DNA of 64,000 nt from Candidatus Eiseniibacteriota bacterium (GTDB lineage: Bacteria > Eisenbacteria > RBG-16-71-46 > CAZEPH01), in contig JBGATO010000006.1 in assembly GCA_044229145.1 (NCBI GenBank), forward strand, positions 1 to 64,000, given 5' to 3'. Shown one piece after another: positions 30,001 to 33,000 of this stretch. Within the stretch, counting starts at the first letter, position 1. Every line of letters begins with the position of its first letter. The position numbers are program-made.

Positions 30001-33000
30001 GAAATACGCCGGAGCGCCGCGTGATCGCGACGATGATCATCATCCCGGCCAGCAGCCCGATGGTGTTGAAGTCGATCCCGCGAATCGCCGCTTCTTGCGT
30101 CAACACGCCCGCCAGGATCATCACCCCGGCGCCCAGCAACCCGACGATCGCGCGGTTGACCTTGTCGCTCATCACCACGATGTAGGTGAGCACGAACAGC
30201 GGGGTGGCCACCCACAGGGCGTTCCACCCAAAGACGACGTGTGAGACGGCAGAGTCCGGGTGCATGCAGGGTCTCCGATCCGGGCGACCAATGGCGCACC
30301 ACCGCGCATTCGCGCGGCACGCGCCGTGAGGGGGCATGACGCAGCGCATGGTTCCGGGCGCGCGCGAGCCTGTCAATCTGCGAGCGGTATCGAGCACGTC
30401 GACTTGGCACCGCCCGCGTCCGCGAATCGCTCGCGCGGGTCGACCATGGTAGACGAATCATCGCGTTCACTCGCGTCTCCTACATCATGCGGAGTTGGCT
30501 TCCGTGATCCACGCGAGCGCCCCACCGTTCGTCGACTTCCCCGTCCTTCCTCCCAGACTGGAGAAACCGACATGCATTGGCGACCCCTACATACCCGGCG
30601 CGTCCTCCTCGCCGTCACCGGGCTCGCGGCGCTCGTGGCGCTGCCGTTCCTGGCGCGTCCGCTCGGCGCGGCGGCCCCGCCGATGGCGCGGCGCGCCCCG
30701 GCGAGCACTCTCGGTGAGTACGTGCTGCTCGGCTGGAATGACCTCGGCATGCACTGCGCGAACAAGATCTTCGCCGATCTCTGCGTGCTGCCGCCGTACA
30801 ACAACGTCTTCGCCCAGCTCATCAAGCGCGGCGATGCGAGTCATGCGCCGCAGCTCATGAATGCGCCCTACTCCGTGAGCTACGGCATCGAGAACAACAC
30901 CTATTCGGTGGGCAAGACGGATTTCTGGACCTACGCGCAGCAGTTGTTCGGCGTCGCGCTACCGCCCGACATCGGGCTCACCGGCAAGGGCATGTCGGGG
31001 ACAATGGACGCGAAGGGCACATACTTCGAAGCCGAAGGCGTGCCGATTACGCCGTACAACGACTCGAGCCTGACGACCTGGTACGCCTACCAGCTCGGCG
31101 CGTTGAGCGCCTACGACTCGCTCGGCCGCTCGCTCGCCAGCACCGAGATCGTGGTGCCGGTGAGCAACGAACTGCGCTGCGATTCGTGCCACGTCGCCAC
31201 CCGCACCTACACTACCGATCAGGTCATCCTGCGCAAGCACGACGCGGAGAACGGCACGCACTTGATGGCGTCGCGCCCGGTGTTGTGCGCGAGTTGCCAC
31301 GCCGACAACGCGCTCGGTCTCCCGGGCAAGCCGGGCCTGCCGAGCCTCTCCGAGGCGATGCACGACAAGCACGGCGACATCGCCCCGAATTGCTACAGCT
31401 GCCACCCCGGCCCGGTTACGCAGTGTTTGCGCGATGTGATGTCGCAACAGCACGGCATGACCTGCCAGGACTGCCACGGCAGCACCAAACACGTCGCCGA
31501 AACGATCAAGAACGGCCGCCAGCCGTGGCTACAGGAGACGCCGCGCTGCGGCACCTGCCACGGCTCGCAGTACGCCGAGATCCCCGGCAAACTGTTCAAG
31601 GAGTCGAACAACGGACACGGCGGGCTCTACTGCTCGGCGTGTCACTCGAGCCCGCACGCCATCCTGCCGTCGCGTGAGGAACGCGACAACCGGCAGAACA
31701 TCGCGCTGCAGGATTCGAGCGGGACGCTGCGTTCGTGCGTGGTGTGTCACGGCACGACGCCGAGCGGCGCCGGCCCGCATGGTATCTACGCGACCGGCGT
31801 GCGCGATCCGCAGCACCGCGGCACGTTCGCGGCGAGCGTGTCGGTGTCACCGAATCCGTCGAGCGGCCGCGTGCAGCTCGCCTACCGCACCGTCGCGCGC
31901 GGTCCGTTGACGCTGGAGATCTGCGATGCGTCCGGCCGCGTGGTGCGGACGATGGCGCGCAGCACCGATCAACCGGGCGATCACACGCTGATGTGGGACG
32001 GCCTCGACGCGCGCAGCCGCACCGTGCCGCCGGGCGTCTACTATTGCCGCCTGAGCAACGGTGGACAGCGTGCCTCGGCGCGCCTCGTGCGCAGCGGCCG
32101 CTGATCGTCTCCGCGCAACACGAAGGCGGCACGGGCTCCGCGCCCGTGCCGCCTTGTGCGTCTGTCGTCGCGGTCGAGAGTGGGGCTGCGCGCCGCCAAT
32201 CCGATTGTCGGTCGCCAACAGCGCCTTGATGAGCGACTCGCCCGCCACGAGACCCGAGGCGATCGGCACGTTGTAGAGGTCTTGGTTCTTCGCGTTGAAC
32301 CGCGACCACACCCACGAAAACGTCGCACCGACGGTGAAGGCGAGCGCATTGCTGAAGAACACGACCCACCCGAGACCGATGCCCATCGCCGACGGCATGT
32401 ACGGCCGCGCTTTGGGGAATTGCTTCTCGAGCACCGGAAGCGCAACGCCGATCAGTGCGCCAATCAGAATGATGTAGCGCGCCGACATCGGCAGGCTCTC
32501 GAGCCCGTTCGACAGCACGCGCGCTACCGCCACCCACGTGTTGGTGGCCGGCAGCGGGAACTTCTCGAGCGCCGCGTCGTTCGGGATCATCAGATACCAC
32601 GCCGGCACGATGGCGAGCGTCCCGAAGAACACGCCGGTGAACTGCGCGAGGAACTGCTGGCGCGGGTTGGCGCCGAGCAAGTAGCCGGACTTGAGATCGG
32701 TGAGCAGGTCAGCACTCGCCGACGCACTGTTCGCGCCGATACCGGCCGACGCCAAGTTGTGCGTGACGTTGCCCGGGCTGAGGAACGCGAACAACAGCTG
32801 CATGACCTTGCCCATCGCGCCGATCGGCGTGGTGTCGGTCTCTCCGGTGGACCGCGAGCCCACCAACGACAACACGAACGACATGCCGATGGCGATGAGG
32901 CCGGCCCACCACGCGATCTTGAACGCCACTACCTGGATGAACAACATGGCGATGGTGATCGGCACCATGCCGACGATCATCCACTTGACCGGCACTTCGA

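Follow-up and report, generated by a model that had tools for sequence, protein, structure and literature searches.

Extracellular electron transfer is known mainly from Shewanella and Geobacter. In Shewanella, MtrC, OmcA, MtrF and UndA are multihaem cytochromes of the outer cell surface, MtrC having a lipobox and using type II secretion. Gram-positive bacteria possess OcwA and OmhA, which are likewise surface-anchored multihaem cytochromes; the anchor of OmhA is of the SLH kind. In the openly searchable literature, we found no description of a covalently haem-loaded cytochrome as type IX secretion system (T9SS) cargo, nor of cytochrome placement outside the outer membrane in bacteria of the FCB group, abundant inhabitants of sludge and sediments.

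Here we describe an uncalled gene in a 64-kb window (the whole stretch of DNA that was analysed, 64,000 nt) from a Candidatus Eiseniibacteriota bacterium. Its product comprises a predicted signal peptide, an Ig-like front domain, a seven-haem domain and a C-terminal sorting tail (Table 1). We give roughly even chances to the reading of the gene product as a multihaem electron-transfer protein at the cell surface; the organism probably exposes a redox protein on its outside.

The protein resembles the MtrC group (6qyc, 4lm8, 3ucp, 9eov) in the order of a beta-rich domain followed by a multihaem domain, in which the haems are probably all bis-His. As for envelope anchoring, tail-less relatives of the seven-haem family carry a signal of the lipoprotein type, like that of MtrC, and the organism, like Shewanella, also has a ten-haem cytochrome paired with MtrB_PioB. 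However, seven haems and two domains are present here, compared with ten or eleven haems and four domains there. The model PF22113 (MtrC-MtrF_II-IV) scored 23.8 bits, under its cut-off of 30, and the fold matches were weak (6qyc, Foldseek E 2.4e-3, TM 0.17; 9eov, E 4.5e-3). Unlike MtrC, the seven-haem protein ends in a sorting tail, and its gene is not situated beside the conduit. With OcwA and OmhA it would share the surface anchoring of a multihaem protein, and its Chloroflexota family members carry SLH; it is set apart, however, by its number of haems and by its Ig-like front domain, and structure searches returned neither a sequence nor a fold match to these proteins.

Type A cargo of the T9SS, as known from Bacteroidota, has a signal peptide, as is predicted here, and the same beta-sandwich of ~85 aa at the very C-terminus, and many such cargoes are encoded in the genome together with SprA and PorU-like genes. 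In contrast to Bacteroidota, the host phylum is without recognisable GldL and GldM, and the Por_Secre_tail model (PF18962) remained under its cut-off. The tail also matches the FlgD_ig family (PF13860), and structures of the hook-capping protein FlgD align with it at Z 7.5-7.8. FlgD equivalog models, however, reached at most 30.6 bits against cut-offs of at least 230 (the best being NF005176, with a cut-off of 230), and only the Ig-like domain was matched. A FlgD or flagellar identity was rejected, the Ig-like fold alone being in common.

Table 1. Features of the cytochrome locus (positions in the window)
Feature	Position	Strand	Basis or remark
Shine-Dalgarno-like GGAG	30560..30563	+	direct reading of sequence; 8 nt ahead of ATG
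Uncalled gene, 510 codons and TGA stop	30572..32104	+	open frame; GC3 0.89; homologues
Sec-type signal peptide, residues 1 to ~33, without lipobox cysteine	30572..30670	+	by eye
Haem-free Ig-like beta-sandwich, residues ~48-197	30713..31162	+	AF2 core model
Loop N56-D57-L58-G59-M60-H61-C62	30737..30757	+	alignment A2
Seven-haem domain, residues ~198-410	31163..31801	+	Pfam matches
Haem motif 1, CDSCH, C203-H207	31178..31192	+	invariant in A1 and A2
Haem motif 2, CASCH, C239-H243	31286..31300	+	alignments A1, A2
Haem motif 3, CYSCH, C274-H278	31391..31405	+	alignments A1, A2
Haem motif 4, CQDCH, C298-H302	31463..31477	+	C301 and H302 invariant; C298 in at least 90%
Haem motif 5, CGTCH, C326-H330	31547..31561	+	alignments A1, A2
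Haem motif 6, CSACH, C354-H358	31631..31645	+	alignments A1, A2
Haem motif 7, CVVCH, C389-H393	31736..31750	+	alignments A1, A2
C-terminal sorting domain, beta-sandwich, residues ~421-510	31832..32101	+	profiles and fold
Unconserved 3' tail of convergent OPT frame	31847..32224	-	overlaps the tail-coding part of the cytochrome gene

Signal peptide, front domain and seven-haem domain

The seven-haem domain matched two Pfam families over their cut-offs, namely Cytochrome_C7 (41.4 bits, cut-off 24.8) and Cytochrom_c3_2 (28.7 bits, cut-off 25). All seven CxxCH motifs that the preliminary description had reported were found again (Table 1). Their supposed invariance was largely borne out by 118-119 aligned sequences, except that C298 of motif 4 is kept only in at least 90% of the sequences of alignment A1; at the site of motif 1, many relatives have CX4CH. 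Outside the motifs, H223, H264, H267, H349, H362, H403 and C285 are invariant in both alignments (A1 and A2). With H61 as the seventh, the invariant non-motif histidines number exactly seven for seven haems. Further invariant residues, polar and other, are N56, D57, M60, C62, K115, D164, E200, R287, W319, D372 and Q380 (A2). The genome also encodes cytochrome c maturation, as two matches to PF01578 (Cytochrom_C_asm; 109.7 and 88.7 bits) lie over the cut-off. Judged from its sequence, the 510-aa protein is a genuine multihaem c-type cytochrome with predicted haem binding.

The N-terminal 190 residues had previously been left unexplained, and the haem part had been said not to fold well in AF2. 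The first of these statements needs to be revised. The core model, in which the Ig-like domain and the haem part were folded together, reached a pLDDT of 92.3 and a pTM of 0.90, and its front part is an Ig-like beta-sandwich with pLDDT mostly >95. The Pfam search gave no family covering this front domain, and the fold search with the core model matched it to generic Ig-like folds only (best VIA Z 4.9). The NDLGMHC loop stands out by its conservation: all of its residues except G59 are invariant across the 118 sequences of A2, and G59 itself is kept in at least 90%. From this loop, we infer H61 to be a distal haem ligand; C62 might form an interdomain disulfide with C285.

For the haem domain, neither VIA nor Foldseek searches with the core model identified a fold relative. 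The best Foldseek match of the core model, AlkC (E 7.5e-4), was rejected as an unrelated Ig-like match. The full-length model yielded only weak global Foldseek matches among solved structures (MtrC, TMq 0.13). When solved structures were searched with the A1 profile, FlgD Ig domains alone came up (E 0.58 and 0.88), and the core was left without a match. In the ESM Atlas, only unnamed or cytochrome c7/c3-type clusters were met (at most 0.92), with no functional lead.

At the N-terminus, a basic start, a hydrophobic run and 'PLGA/AAPP' can be read by eye, and this layout is common to the homologues, in agreement with the signal peptide claimed before, which would be of Sec type. AF2 places a helix at residues 6-27 and a linker of low confidence at residues 33-42. 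Export by Tat was rejected: 'TRRVLL' is present, but its RR pair is not kept in homologues, and the Tat route is also at odds with the established requirement of c-type cytochromes for Sec export.

The family, its anchors and its genomic surroundings

The family is indeed as large as had been thought: of 8000 candidates that were scored, 3312 are relatives at E<=1e-3. The 120 listed homologues possess 4-7 CxxCH each, and 96 of them carry the tail at the C-end, both as reported earlier; seven C(X2-4)CH sites are present in 119 of the 120. Restriction to the FCB group, on the other hand, did not hold, as the core also occurs in Chloroflexota, Planctomycetota, Nitrospirota and others, there without the tail. 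Sequence identity is 45-60% across phyla. Such high conservation, together with the invariant polar residues, is more enzyme-like than would be expected of a plain wire, and was counted against the reading of the protein as a surface carrier.

The means of anchoring vary considerably. FlgD_ig or Por_Secre_tail domains were present in Eisenbacteria, Bacteroidales, Chlorobiota, Ignavibacteria and Calditrichota-type records, dockerin in Ignavibacteria and Zixibacteria, and SLH in Chloroflexota. All 12 examined tail-less forms of ~400 aa have a lipoprotein-type signal, and the core stands without any anchor in Planctomycetota and Nitrospirota. To explain the tail label on the core tree, six changes are required, at least three of which are forced by well-supported branches. 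Sorting tail, lipoprotein signal, dockerin and SLH are thus interchangeable anchors on one conserved core. From the unanchored forms of Planctomycetota and Nitrospirota, it can be concluded that the core is able to function away from the cell surface, which likewise counts against the surface reading.

No conserved partner gene was detected in 80 related loci, where only generic families recur, i.e. response regulators, histidine kinases, sigma-54 activators and ABC ATPases. Five loci of Planctomycetota have an unannotated downstream gene in common. None of these genes applies to the 64-kb window.

The genome as a whole contains 17 frames with at least three CxxCH, that is, the cytochrome and 16 others, with up to 35 CxxCH per frame. 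None of the 16 others showed a sorting tail at E<=0.01; of these, the 35-haem frame (contig C57) is cut by the contig end on its C-terminal side, where a tail would lie. A ten-haem frame adjoins an MtrB_PioB porin (204 bits) on contig C133 and forms with it an MtrA/MtrB-like conduit. In the preliminary description, the cytochrome had been likened to MtrC and OmcA, i.e. to the surface partner of such a conduit. The cytochrome gene is located on a different contig, unlinked to this cluster. Nor did we observe co-occurrence with MtrB_PioB among the 151 sampled genomes of the phylum, in which it was present in 9 of 34 family-positive genomes vs 35 of 117 others (8 of 27 vs 36 of 124 when only core-spanning matches were counted). 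Without linkage and co-occurrence, the reading as an MtrC-like partner of an MtrAB-type conduit finds no backing in the genomes and was rejected.

The protein might instead be a multihaem enzyme outside the cytoplasm that reduces or oxidises some specific soluble or surface-bound substrate; the NDLGMHC loop would then contribute to an active site at haem 1, and the anchor would only set the location. We consider this unlikely, although a number of observations would suit it. The identity retained across distant phyla and the invariant residues listed above, C285 included, are of this kind, but the seven invariant non-motif histidines for seven haems fit an all-bis-His protein, which would leave no open site. 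The gene is solitary, without electron-transfer partners in the 80 loci and without a co-occurring outer-membrane conduit; however, an electron supply would be needed for an extracellular enzyme, too. A two-component system or sigma-54 activator near the gene in several lineages fits induction by a substrate, yet no candidate substrate can be named. Finally, the unanchored forms of Planctomycetota and Nitrospirota would be in line with an enzyme, whereas neither profile nor fold searches matched known multihaem enzymes, and NrfH and DmsE-type models remained far under their cut-offs.

The sorting tail and the secretion machinery

In the C-terminal tail, the T9SS type A model TIGR04183 matched residues 425-506 of 510 with 27.4 bits (cut-off 23), and FlgD_ig (PF13860) scored 36.7 bits (cut-off 27), while Por_Secre_tail (PF18962) reached 19.2 bits, under its cut-off of 27. 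An HMM of tails from the whole genome matched the tail of the cytochrome at E 5e-35. The best structural match was the C-terminal domain of PorU (6za2_B; Z 11.5, rmsd 3.0, 92 residues), and two other solved T9SS tails were matched as well, PorZ (5m11, Z 9.5) and mirolase (8qb1, Z 8.4); many unrelated Ig-like folds scored at Z 8-10, such folds being common. Profile, position and fold mark the tail as a true T9SS type A sorting domain at the C-terminus, as had been proposed.

Among the 26,362 stop-to-stop frames of at least 80 aa in the genome, 181 were matched by the tail HMM, and in 174 of these the match ends at most 15 aa from the stop (median frame 833 aa). The cytochrome frame alone among these 174 has two or more CxxCH; one frame has a single motif and 172 have none. 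The earlier statement that it is the only tail-bearing frame with at least two CxxCH therefore holds true.

As for the machinery, SprA/Sov was detected in a 2265-aa frame with 301 bits, over the cut-off of TIGR04189 (401 bits with a neighbouring piece in the same frame), and SprA matches occurred in 147 of the 151 genomes of the phylum sample. Pieces of PorU are situated at the ends of two contigs (80.1, 243.4 and 134.3 bits); if they belong to one gene, their sum is 458 bits vs a cut-off of 420. PorU is adjoined by a PorV-like gene (90 bits vs a cut-off of 250), and PorV-like genes were present in all 151 genomes of this sample, in none of them over the curated cut-off. GldK, GldL and GldM were not found in the genome, which is 89% complete. 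Across the phylum, GldM was found in none of the 151 genomes, and GldL gave three weak matches, none of the 151 genomes reaching the cut-off. The models themselves work, because the same GldL and GldM models detected an adjacent GldL-GldM pair in two of five other genomes, both of Bacteroidota.

Because GldK, GldL and GldM were not found, nor GldL (at cut-off) and GldM elsewhere in the phylum, the export machine here is not a canonical T9SS. If export occurs, it would proceed via an incomplete or very divergent machine. The T9SS route of the preliminary description is partly supported: the sorting tail, SprA, the PorU pieces and the PorV-like gene speak for it, the missing GldK, GldL and GldM against it. 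With 174 tailed frames in the genome beside SprA, the PorU pieces and the PorV-like gene, passage across the outer membrane is the reading that fits best.

A periplasmic or outer-membrane-associated carrier, the Ig-like tail of which would serve as a binding or oligomerisation module and not as an export signal, seems improbable to us. It would follow readily from the missing motor genes, in the host as in the phylum, and from PorV-like genes that stay sub-threshold, yet SprA is nearly universal in the phylum, and a PorU-like sortase gene adjoins the PorV-like gene. The over-threshold Pfam match of the tail is FlgD_ig and not Por_Secre_tail; TIGR04183, however, exceeds its cut-off, and in the fold search a true tail of the T9SS came first. 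Although the tail-less core works in other phyla, a domain placed strictly C-terminally on large proteins in 174 frames is the pattern of a sorting signal. In addition, the same position is held by Por_Secre_tail in Bacteroidales with a full system: one such genome (G003) encodes a tailed homologue (31.8 bits, cut-off 27) along with SprA, GldL and GldM.

The gene and its overlap with the OPT gene

The stop-free frame at 30245-32101 of the forward strand and its ATG at 30572 were both recovered as reported before, while the length of the product had to be corrected from 509 to 510 aa; the TGA stop is located at 32102-32104. GC3 of the frame is similar to that of other genes in the genome. The nearest homologue shows 83% identity across 100% of the length, and another shows 62%. 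RNA-library contigs from one study are identical to 30812-30991 and 31386-31610, which is a weak hint of transcription of the gene, stretches without such cover being uninformative in this respect.

The reported overlap of 255 nt with the convergent OPT gene was confirmed (258 nt including the stop of the cytochrome gene). Because the Pfam OPT match stops at residue 831 of 956, i.e. at ~32225, the overlap is confined to an unconserved tail of the OPT frame. In this tail, GC3 of the OPT frame is 0.69; the values are 0.93 for the OPT domain and 0.89 for the cytochrome frame.

The reading frame at 30572-32101 is thus confirmed to be a real gene, with a product of 510 aa. The chance that it is no functional gene, having been skipped by the gene caller and overlapping the OPT frame as a random open frame or as a decaying gene antisense to the OPT gene end, is negligible in view of its two close homologues and thousands more, its wholly intact motifs and coding-like GC3, the lower GC3 of the overlapped OPT tail outside the OPT domain, the pLDDT of the AF2 core model, and the Shine-Dalgarno-like site with its ATG. 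Real genes that overlap the read-through tail of a convergent neighbour can be lost by gene callers.

Proposed route and implications

The gene, its motifs, the domain identities and the machinery genes were established directly; from these we infer how the haems are ligated, how the protein is exported and tethered, and which way and with which partners electrons flow, as follows. The precursor would cross the inner membrane by Sec, and the seven haems would be attached covalently in the periplasm by the cytochrome c assembly system of the genome. The Ig-like domain would pack on the seven-haem domain, in which the haems are probably all bis-His, H61 being the putative seventh distal ligand. 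The beta-sandwich tail would then be recognised by the SprA-type outer-membrane translocon with the PorV-like and PorU-like proteins. After the tail has been cut off, the protein would be tethered at the cell surface. There it might hand electrons from the envelope to acceptors outside the cell, or take them in from donors; minerals, humics, shuttles and partner cells are examples of both. Participation in extracellular electron transfer is plausible.

For the FCB group, we tentatively suggest, as a possibility that we rate somewhat below even, that a tail-dependent outer-membrane route, previously undescribed, carries folded, haem-loaded multihaem cytochromes to the surface, and that in Eisenbacteria it relies on SprA with PorU-like and PorV-like proteins without recognisable GldL and GldM. 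The seven-haem family might be the commonest cargo of this route, and its interchangeable anchors would then indicate a terminal redox protein of general use to bacteria of sediment and sludge.

The phylum poses a puzzle of its own: with 174 tailed frames in one genome and near-universal SprA, though without a recognisable motor, what is the energy source for secretion? The seven-haem family adds a concrete question, namely whether a type IX-like translocon can pass a seven-haem holo-cytochrome. As the family is large and conserved and is without a solved structure, thousands of proteins would gain an annotation from a single study of its biochemistry or structure.

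The cytochrome gene and its missed annotation

Between positions 30245 and 32101 the plus strand is free of stop codons, and the frame starting with ATG 30572 that the preliminary description had proposed was reproduced on the sequence, although it counts 510 codons and not 509 (see table). Its GC3 of 0.89 is as in other genes of this genome, and a database search returned 3312 relatives of its product (P0002) at E<=1e-3 among 8000 scored candidates, the closest sharing 83% identity over the full length and the second 62%. The gene lies between two CitMHS/ArsB-type permease genes on one side and a convergent OPT transporter gene on the other, whose frame shares 255 nt with it. 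As the Pfam OPT match stops at residue 831 of 956 (about position 32225), and GC3 in the OPT frame is 0.69 in the overlapped tail vs 0.93 in the OPT domain, the overlapped DNA codes in the cytochrome frame. Beyond the domain, the OPT frame is a genuine but unstructured extension or else read-through that ends at the following stop; lying over the cytochrome tail, this part is the probable reason for the missed call of the cytochrome gene. The existence of an uncalled, tail-bearing gene for seven haems is thereby confirmed.

Two RNA-library contigs from a single study match 30812-30991 and 31386-31610 at full identity; since such libraries can contain DNA, they give only a weak hint of transcription. 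The stretch is also present in DNA runs labelled bioreactor and sludge metagenome.

Features of the cytochrome gene, its product P0002 and the candidate electron-conduit cluster on contig C133 of the same genome
Feature	Position	Strand	Basis or remarks
Two CitMHS/ArsB-type permease genes	27250-30397	-	tandem, closely similar; directly upstream of cytochrome gene
Shine-Dalgarno-like GGAG	8 nt before ATG 30572	+	sequence reading
Cytochrome gene	ATG 30572, TGA 32102-32104	+	open frame, 510 codons
OPT frame extension past Pfam domain	31847-32224	-	~125 codons, GC3 0.69, non-coding-like; antisense to tail-coding part of cytochrome gene
CxxCH motifs	C203, C239, C274, C298, C326, C354, C389	+	sequence reading
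Ig-like beta-sandwich	P0002 residues ~48-197		AF2 model
Haem domain	P0002 residues ~198-410		AF2 model
Second beta-sandwich	P0002 residues 421-510		AF2 model
Candidate porin-cytochrome cluster L110	C133:11861-23336	-	ten-haem, MtrB_PioB, cytochrome b, 9- and 18-haem, 13-haem fused to cytochrome b561

Protein architecture and haem ligation

The N-terminus of P0002 is basic at first and hydrophobic thereafter, as is typical of Sec signal peptides, and has no lipobox cysteine; about 150 haem-free residues, the seven CxxCH motifs and a C-terminal domain of about 90 residues follow. The Cytochrome_C7 profile matches it with 41.4 bits (cut-off 24.8). AF2 modelled the whole protein with pLDDT 85.6 and pTM 0.73 (119 sequences), and residues 43-415 with pLDDT 92.3 and pTM 0.90 (118 sequences). 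The latter values do not bear out the earlier impression that the haem part folds poorly, and the haem-free N-terminal part, previously unexplained, appears in the model as an Ig-like beta-sandwich. For the core (this front domain plus the haem domain), no solved relative was found by sequence; by fold the best Z was only 4.9, to generic Ig folds, and Foldseek returned MtrC only at E 2.4e-3 with TM 0.17.

In an alignment of 118 sequences from several phyla, N56, D57, L58, M60, H61 and C62 of an 'NDLGMHC' loop are invariant, as are, outside the motifs, K115, D164, E200, C285, R287, W319, D372 and Q380 and the histidines H223, H264, H267, H349, H362 and H403. H61 and the six others make exactly seven invariant non-motif histidines vs seven haems; from this match we infer that all seven haems may be bis-His ligated, one distal ligand coming from the front domain. 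A C62-C285 disulfide is possible. The core is strongly conserved, with 45-60% identity between phyla and numerous invariant polar residues, which would also suit an extracytoplasmic enzyme, the main rival explanation, but the 7:7 histidine-to-haem count argues for a pure electron carrier, and we hold an enzyme to be unlikely.

The C-terminal tail and the putative export machinery

The tail is matched by FlgD_ig (residues 446-495, 36.7 bits, cut-off 27) and by TIGR04183, the T9SS type A sorting domain (residues 425-506, 27.4 bits, cut-off 23); Por_Secre_tail scored 19.2 bits, below its cut-off of 27. In structure comparison it comes closest to the PorU C-terminal domain of P. gingivalis (6za2_B; Z 11.5, rmsd 3.0, 92 residues, 17% identity), and further T9SS tails (PorZ, Z 9.5; mirolase, Z 8.4) were found together with many generic Ig folds at Z 8-10. 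An HMM built from 38 homologue tails matched 181 of the 26,362 stop-to-stop frames of at least 80 aa in the genome, the match ending at most 15 aa from the stop in 174. Among these 174, CxxCH occurs seven times in the cytochrome frame, once in one other and in none of the remaining 172, so that the cytochrome is indeed, as claimed before, the sole tail-bearing protein of the genome with two or more such motifs. FlgD_ig or Por_Secre_tail at E<=0.01 was found in none of the other 16 of 17 frames with at least three CxxCH, among which a 35-haem frame on contig C57 runs off the contig at its C-terminal end. The earlier figures for 120 listed homologues were likewise recovered: 96 carry the tail at the C-terminal end, and CxxCH motifs number four in 1, five in 62, six in 4 and seven in 53. 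With C(X2-4)CH sites counted instead, 119 of the 120 have seven.

T9SS cargo folds in the periplasm and then passes the wide SprA channel. In the present genome, SprA exceeded the cut-off with 301 bits (401 with a neighbouring piece of the same frame). PorU was matched by pieces at the ends of contigs C101 and C39 (80.1 + 243.4 + 134.3 bits, cut-off 420), the C-terminal one adjoining a PorV-like gene (90 bits, cut-off 250). A profile search of this genome, which is 89% complete, gave no match to GldK, GldL or GldM. The GldL and GldM models do work, since an adjacent pair over cut-off was found in the Bacteroidales genome G003 and in Maribellus mangrovi (G004); no such pair was found in G001 and G002, whose records both bear the name Candidatus Eisenbacteria, nor in the Ignavibacteria genome G005. 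Within the family as a whole, the canonical T9SS case does occur: G003 encodes SprA (2601 bits), GldL and GldM together with a homologue whose tail scores 31.8 bits for Por_Secre_tail.

In a sample of 151 genomes of the phylum (118 of high quality), SprA was matched in 147 (over cut-off in 138) and PorV-like genes (E<=1e-10) in all 151 (over cut-off in none), while GldM was matched in none and GldL weakly in three, never over cut-off. One unpublished genome (G020) supplies one positive to each of the SprA, PorV-like and MtrB_PioB totals, and no conclusion rests on it. The phylum has a massive tail-tagged secretome and a translocon, with no recognisable motor. Tail-dependent secretion seems to run here without a recognisable PorL/PorM motor, and the label 'T9SS' needs qualifying. 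As for the T9SS export route originally proposed, the profile and fold of the tail and the presence of SprA speak for it, whereas GldK, GldL and GldM were searched for in this genome and not found. That the protein is a periplasmic carrier whose tail does not serve export appears improbable to us.

A 1741-aa frame (C133:4173-9395, minus strand), in which a Peptidase_C25 domain (215 bits) and FG-GAP repeats are joined to a FlgD_ig tail, is a gingipain/PorU-like protease that carries the tail tag itself.

Electron-transfer context

Multihaem frames of the genome contain 35, 23, 20, 18, 16, 13, 11, 10 and fewer CxxCH motifs. On contig C133, a ten-haem frame lies directly upstream of an MtrB_PioB porin (204 bits), with cytochrome b and 9-, 18- and 13-haem frames alongside, a candidate porin-cytochrome electron conduit. 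This cluster and the many multihaem frames make electron transfer across the outer membrane plausible in this bacterium. Frames with 35 (truncated) and 20 CxxCH are neighbours at C57:3-4605.

The cytochrome gene lies away from the MtrB_PioB cluster. In the phylum sample, the family (E<=1e-20) was found in 34 of 151 genomes, the match spanning the core in 27 and reaching the tail in 25, and MtrB_PioB in 45 (44 over cut-off). The porin accompanied 9/34 family-positive vs 35/117 other genomes, related genomes not being independent; by group, family and porin occurred in 5/7 and 0/7 genomes of f3, 7/12 and 0/12 of f14, and 0/32 and 19/32 of f6. Whether a genome of the phylum has the family bears no relation to its having MtrB_PioB. 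With neither linkage in the genome nor co-occurrence in the sample, the specific idea of an MtrC-like partner of an MtrAB conduit is not supported.

No conserved partner of the cytochrome gene beyond generic regulators was found in 80 related loci. In five Planctomycetota loci (L071, L074, L075, L076, L078), a conserved gene of 380-500 aa without Pfam match lies directly downstream, possibly a lineage-specific partner.

Distribution and anchoring of the family

A scan of species-representative genomes gave at least 593 family loci. Among the matches listed, the core (residues ~49-405) occurs in records named Eisenbacteria, Bacteroidales, Chlorobiota, Ignavibacteria, Zixibacteria, Calditrichaeota, Chloroflexota, Phycisphaerales, Nitrospirota and others, including one cultured strain, Maribellus mangrovi FJH33. 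What follows the core at the C-terminal end tracks lineage among these matches: FlgD_ig in Eisenbacteria; Por_Secre_tail in Bacteroidales, Chlorobiota, Ignavibacteria and Kapaibacteria; dockerin in Ignavibacteria and Zixibacteria; SLH in Chloroflexota; a MopE-type motif in Prolixibacteraceae; extra haems in Nitrospirota; and none in Planctomycetota. The 120 listed homologues include 12 tail-less forms of ~400 aa, every one of which carries a lipoprotein-like signal (a hydrophobic run ending in [AG]-C-[ST]).

In these 12 (within P0046-P0071), a Ser/Thr/Pro-rich linker follows the signal. Tailed and tail-less copies occur together in some genomes of the phylum (G008, G025, G032, G042, G074). Dockerin-bearing forms have a conserved '...P-x-C-P'-like cysteine at the C-terminal end. 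Two longer forms, of 905 and 1035 aa (L037:7917-10631 and L050:989-4093), have ten CxxCH motifs and look like tandem fusions of two cores. In f14 frames of ~880-907 aa (G084, G097, G109, G131, G143), the match is confined to family-profile positions 39-308, i.e. the front domain and first haems only, and the front domain is therefore found in another, larger architecture too.

On the core tree, six changes of the tail label are required (shuffled mean 37), and well-supported branches force at least three of these; anchors have therefore been exchanged a few times while the core stayed conserved. Because any exported protein of single-membrane cells is 'outside', such swapping is no proof of surface exposure; it fits a protein that needs a hold at the envelope or surface.

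No paper joining type IX secretion with multihaem cytochromes was found in the searchable literature. Extracellular multihaem cytochromes were predicted in Bacteroidota genomes from wastewater plants (PMC11495043), and electron export was proposed for a Lentimicrobium with a porin-cytochrome cluster (PMC13013709); the former never names T9SS, and the latter makes its proposal without it. The present cytochrome would be at once a surface multihaem cytochrome and T9SS-type cargo, both known kinds. The original interpretation as a whole is partly supported and, with confidence and doubt about evenly balanced, we read the protein as a surface-directed seven-haem electron-transfer protein, exported by an SprA-based, tail-dependent route.
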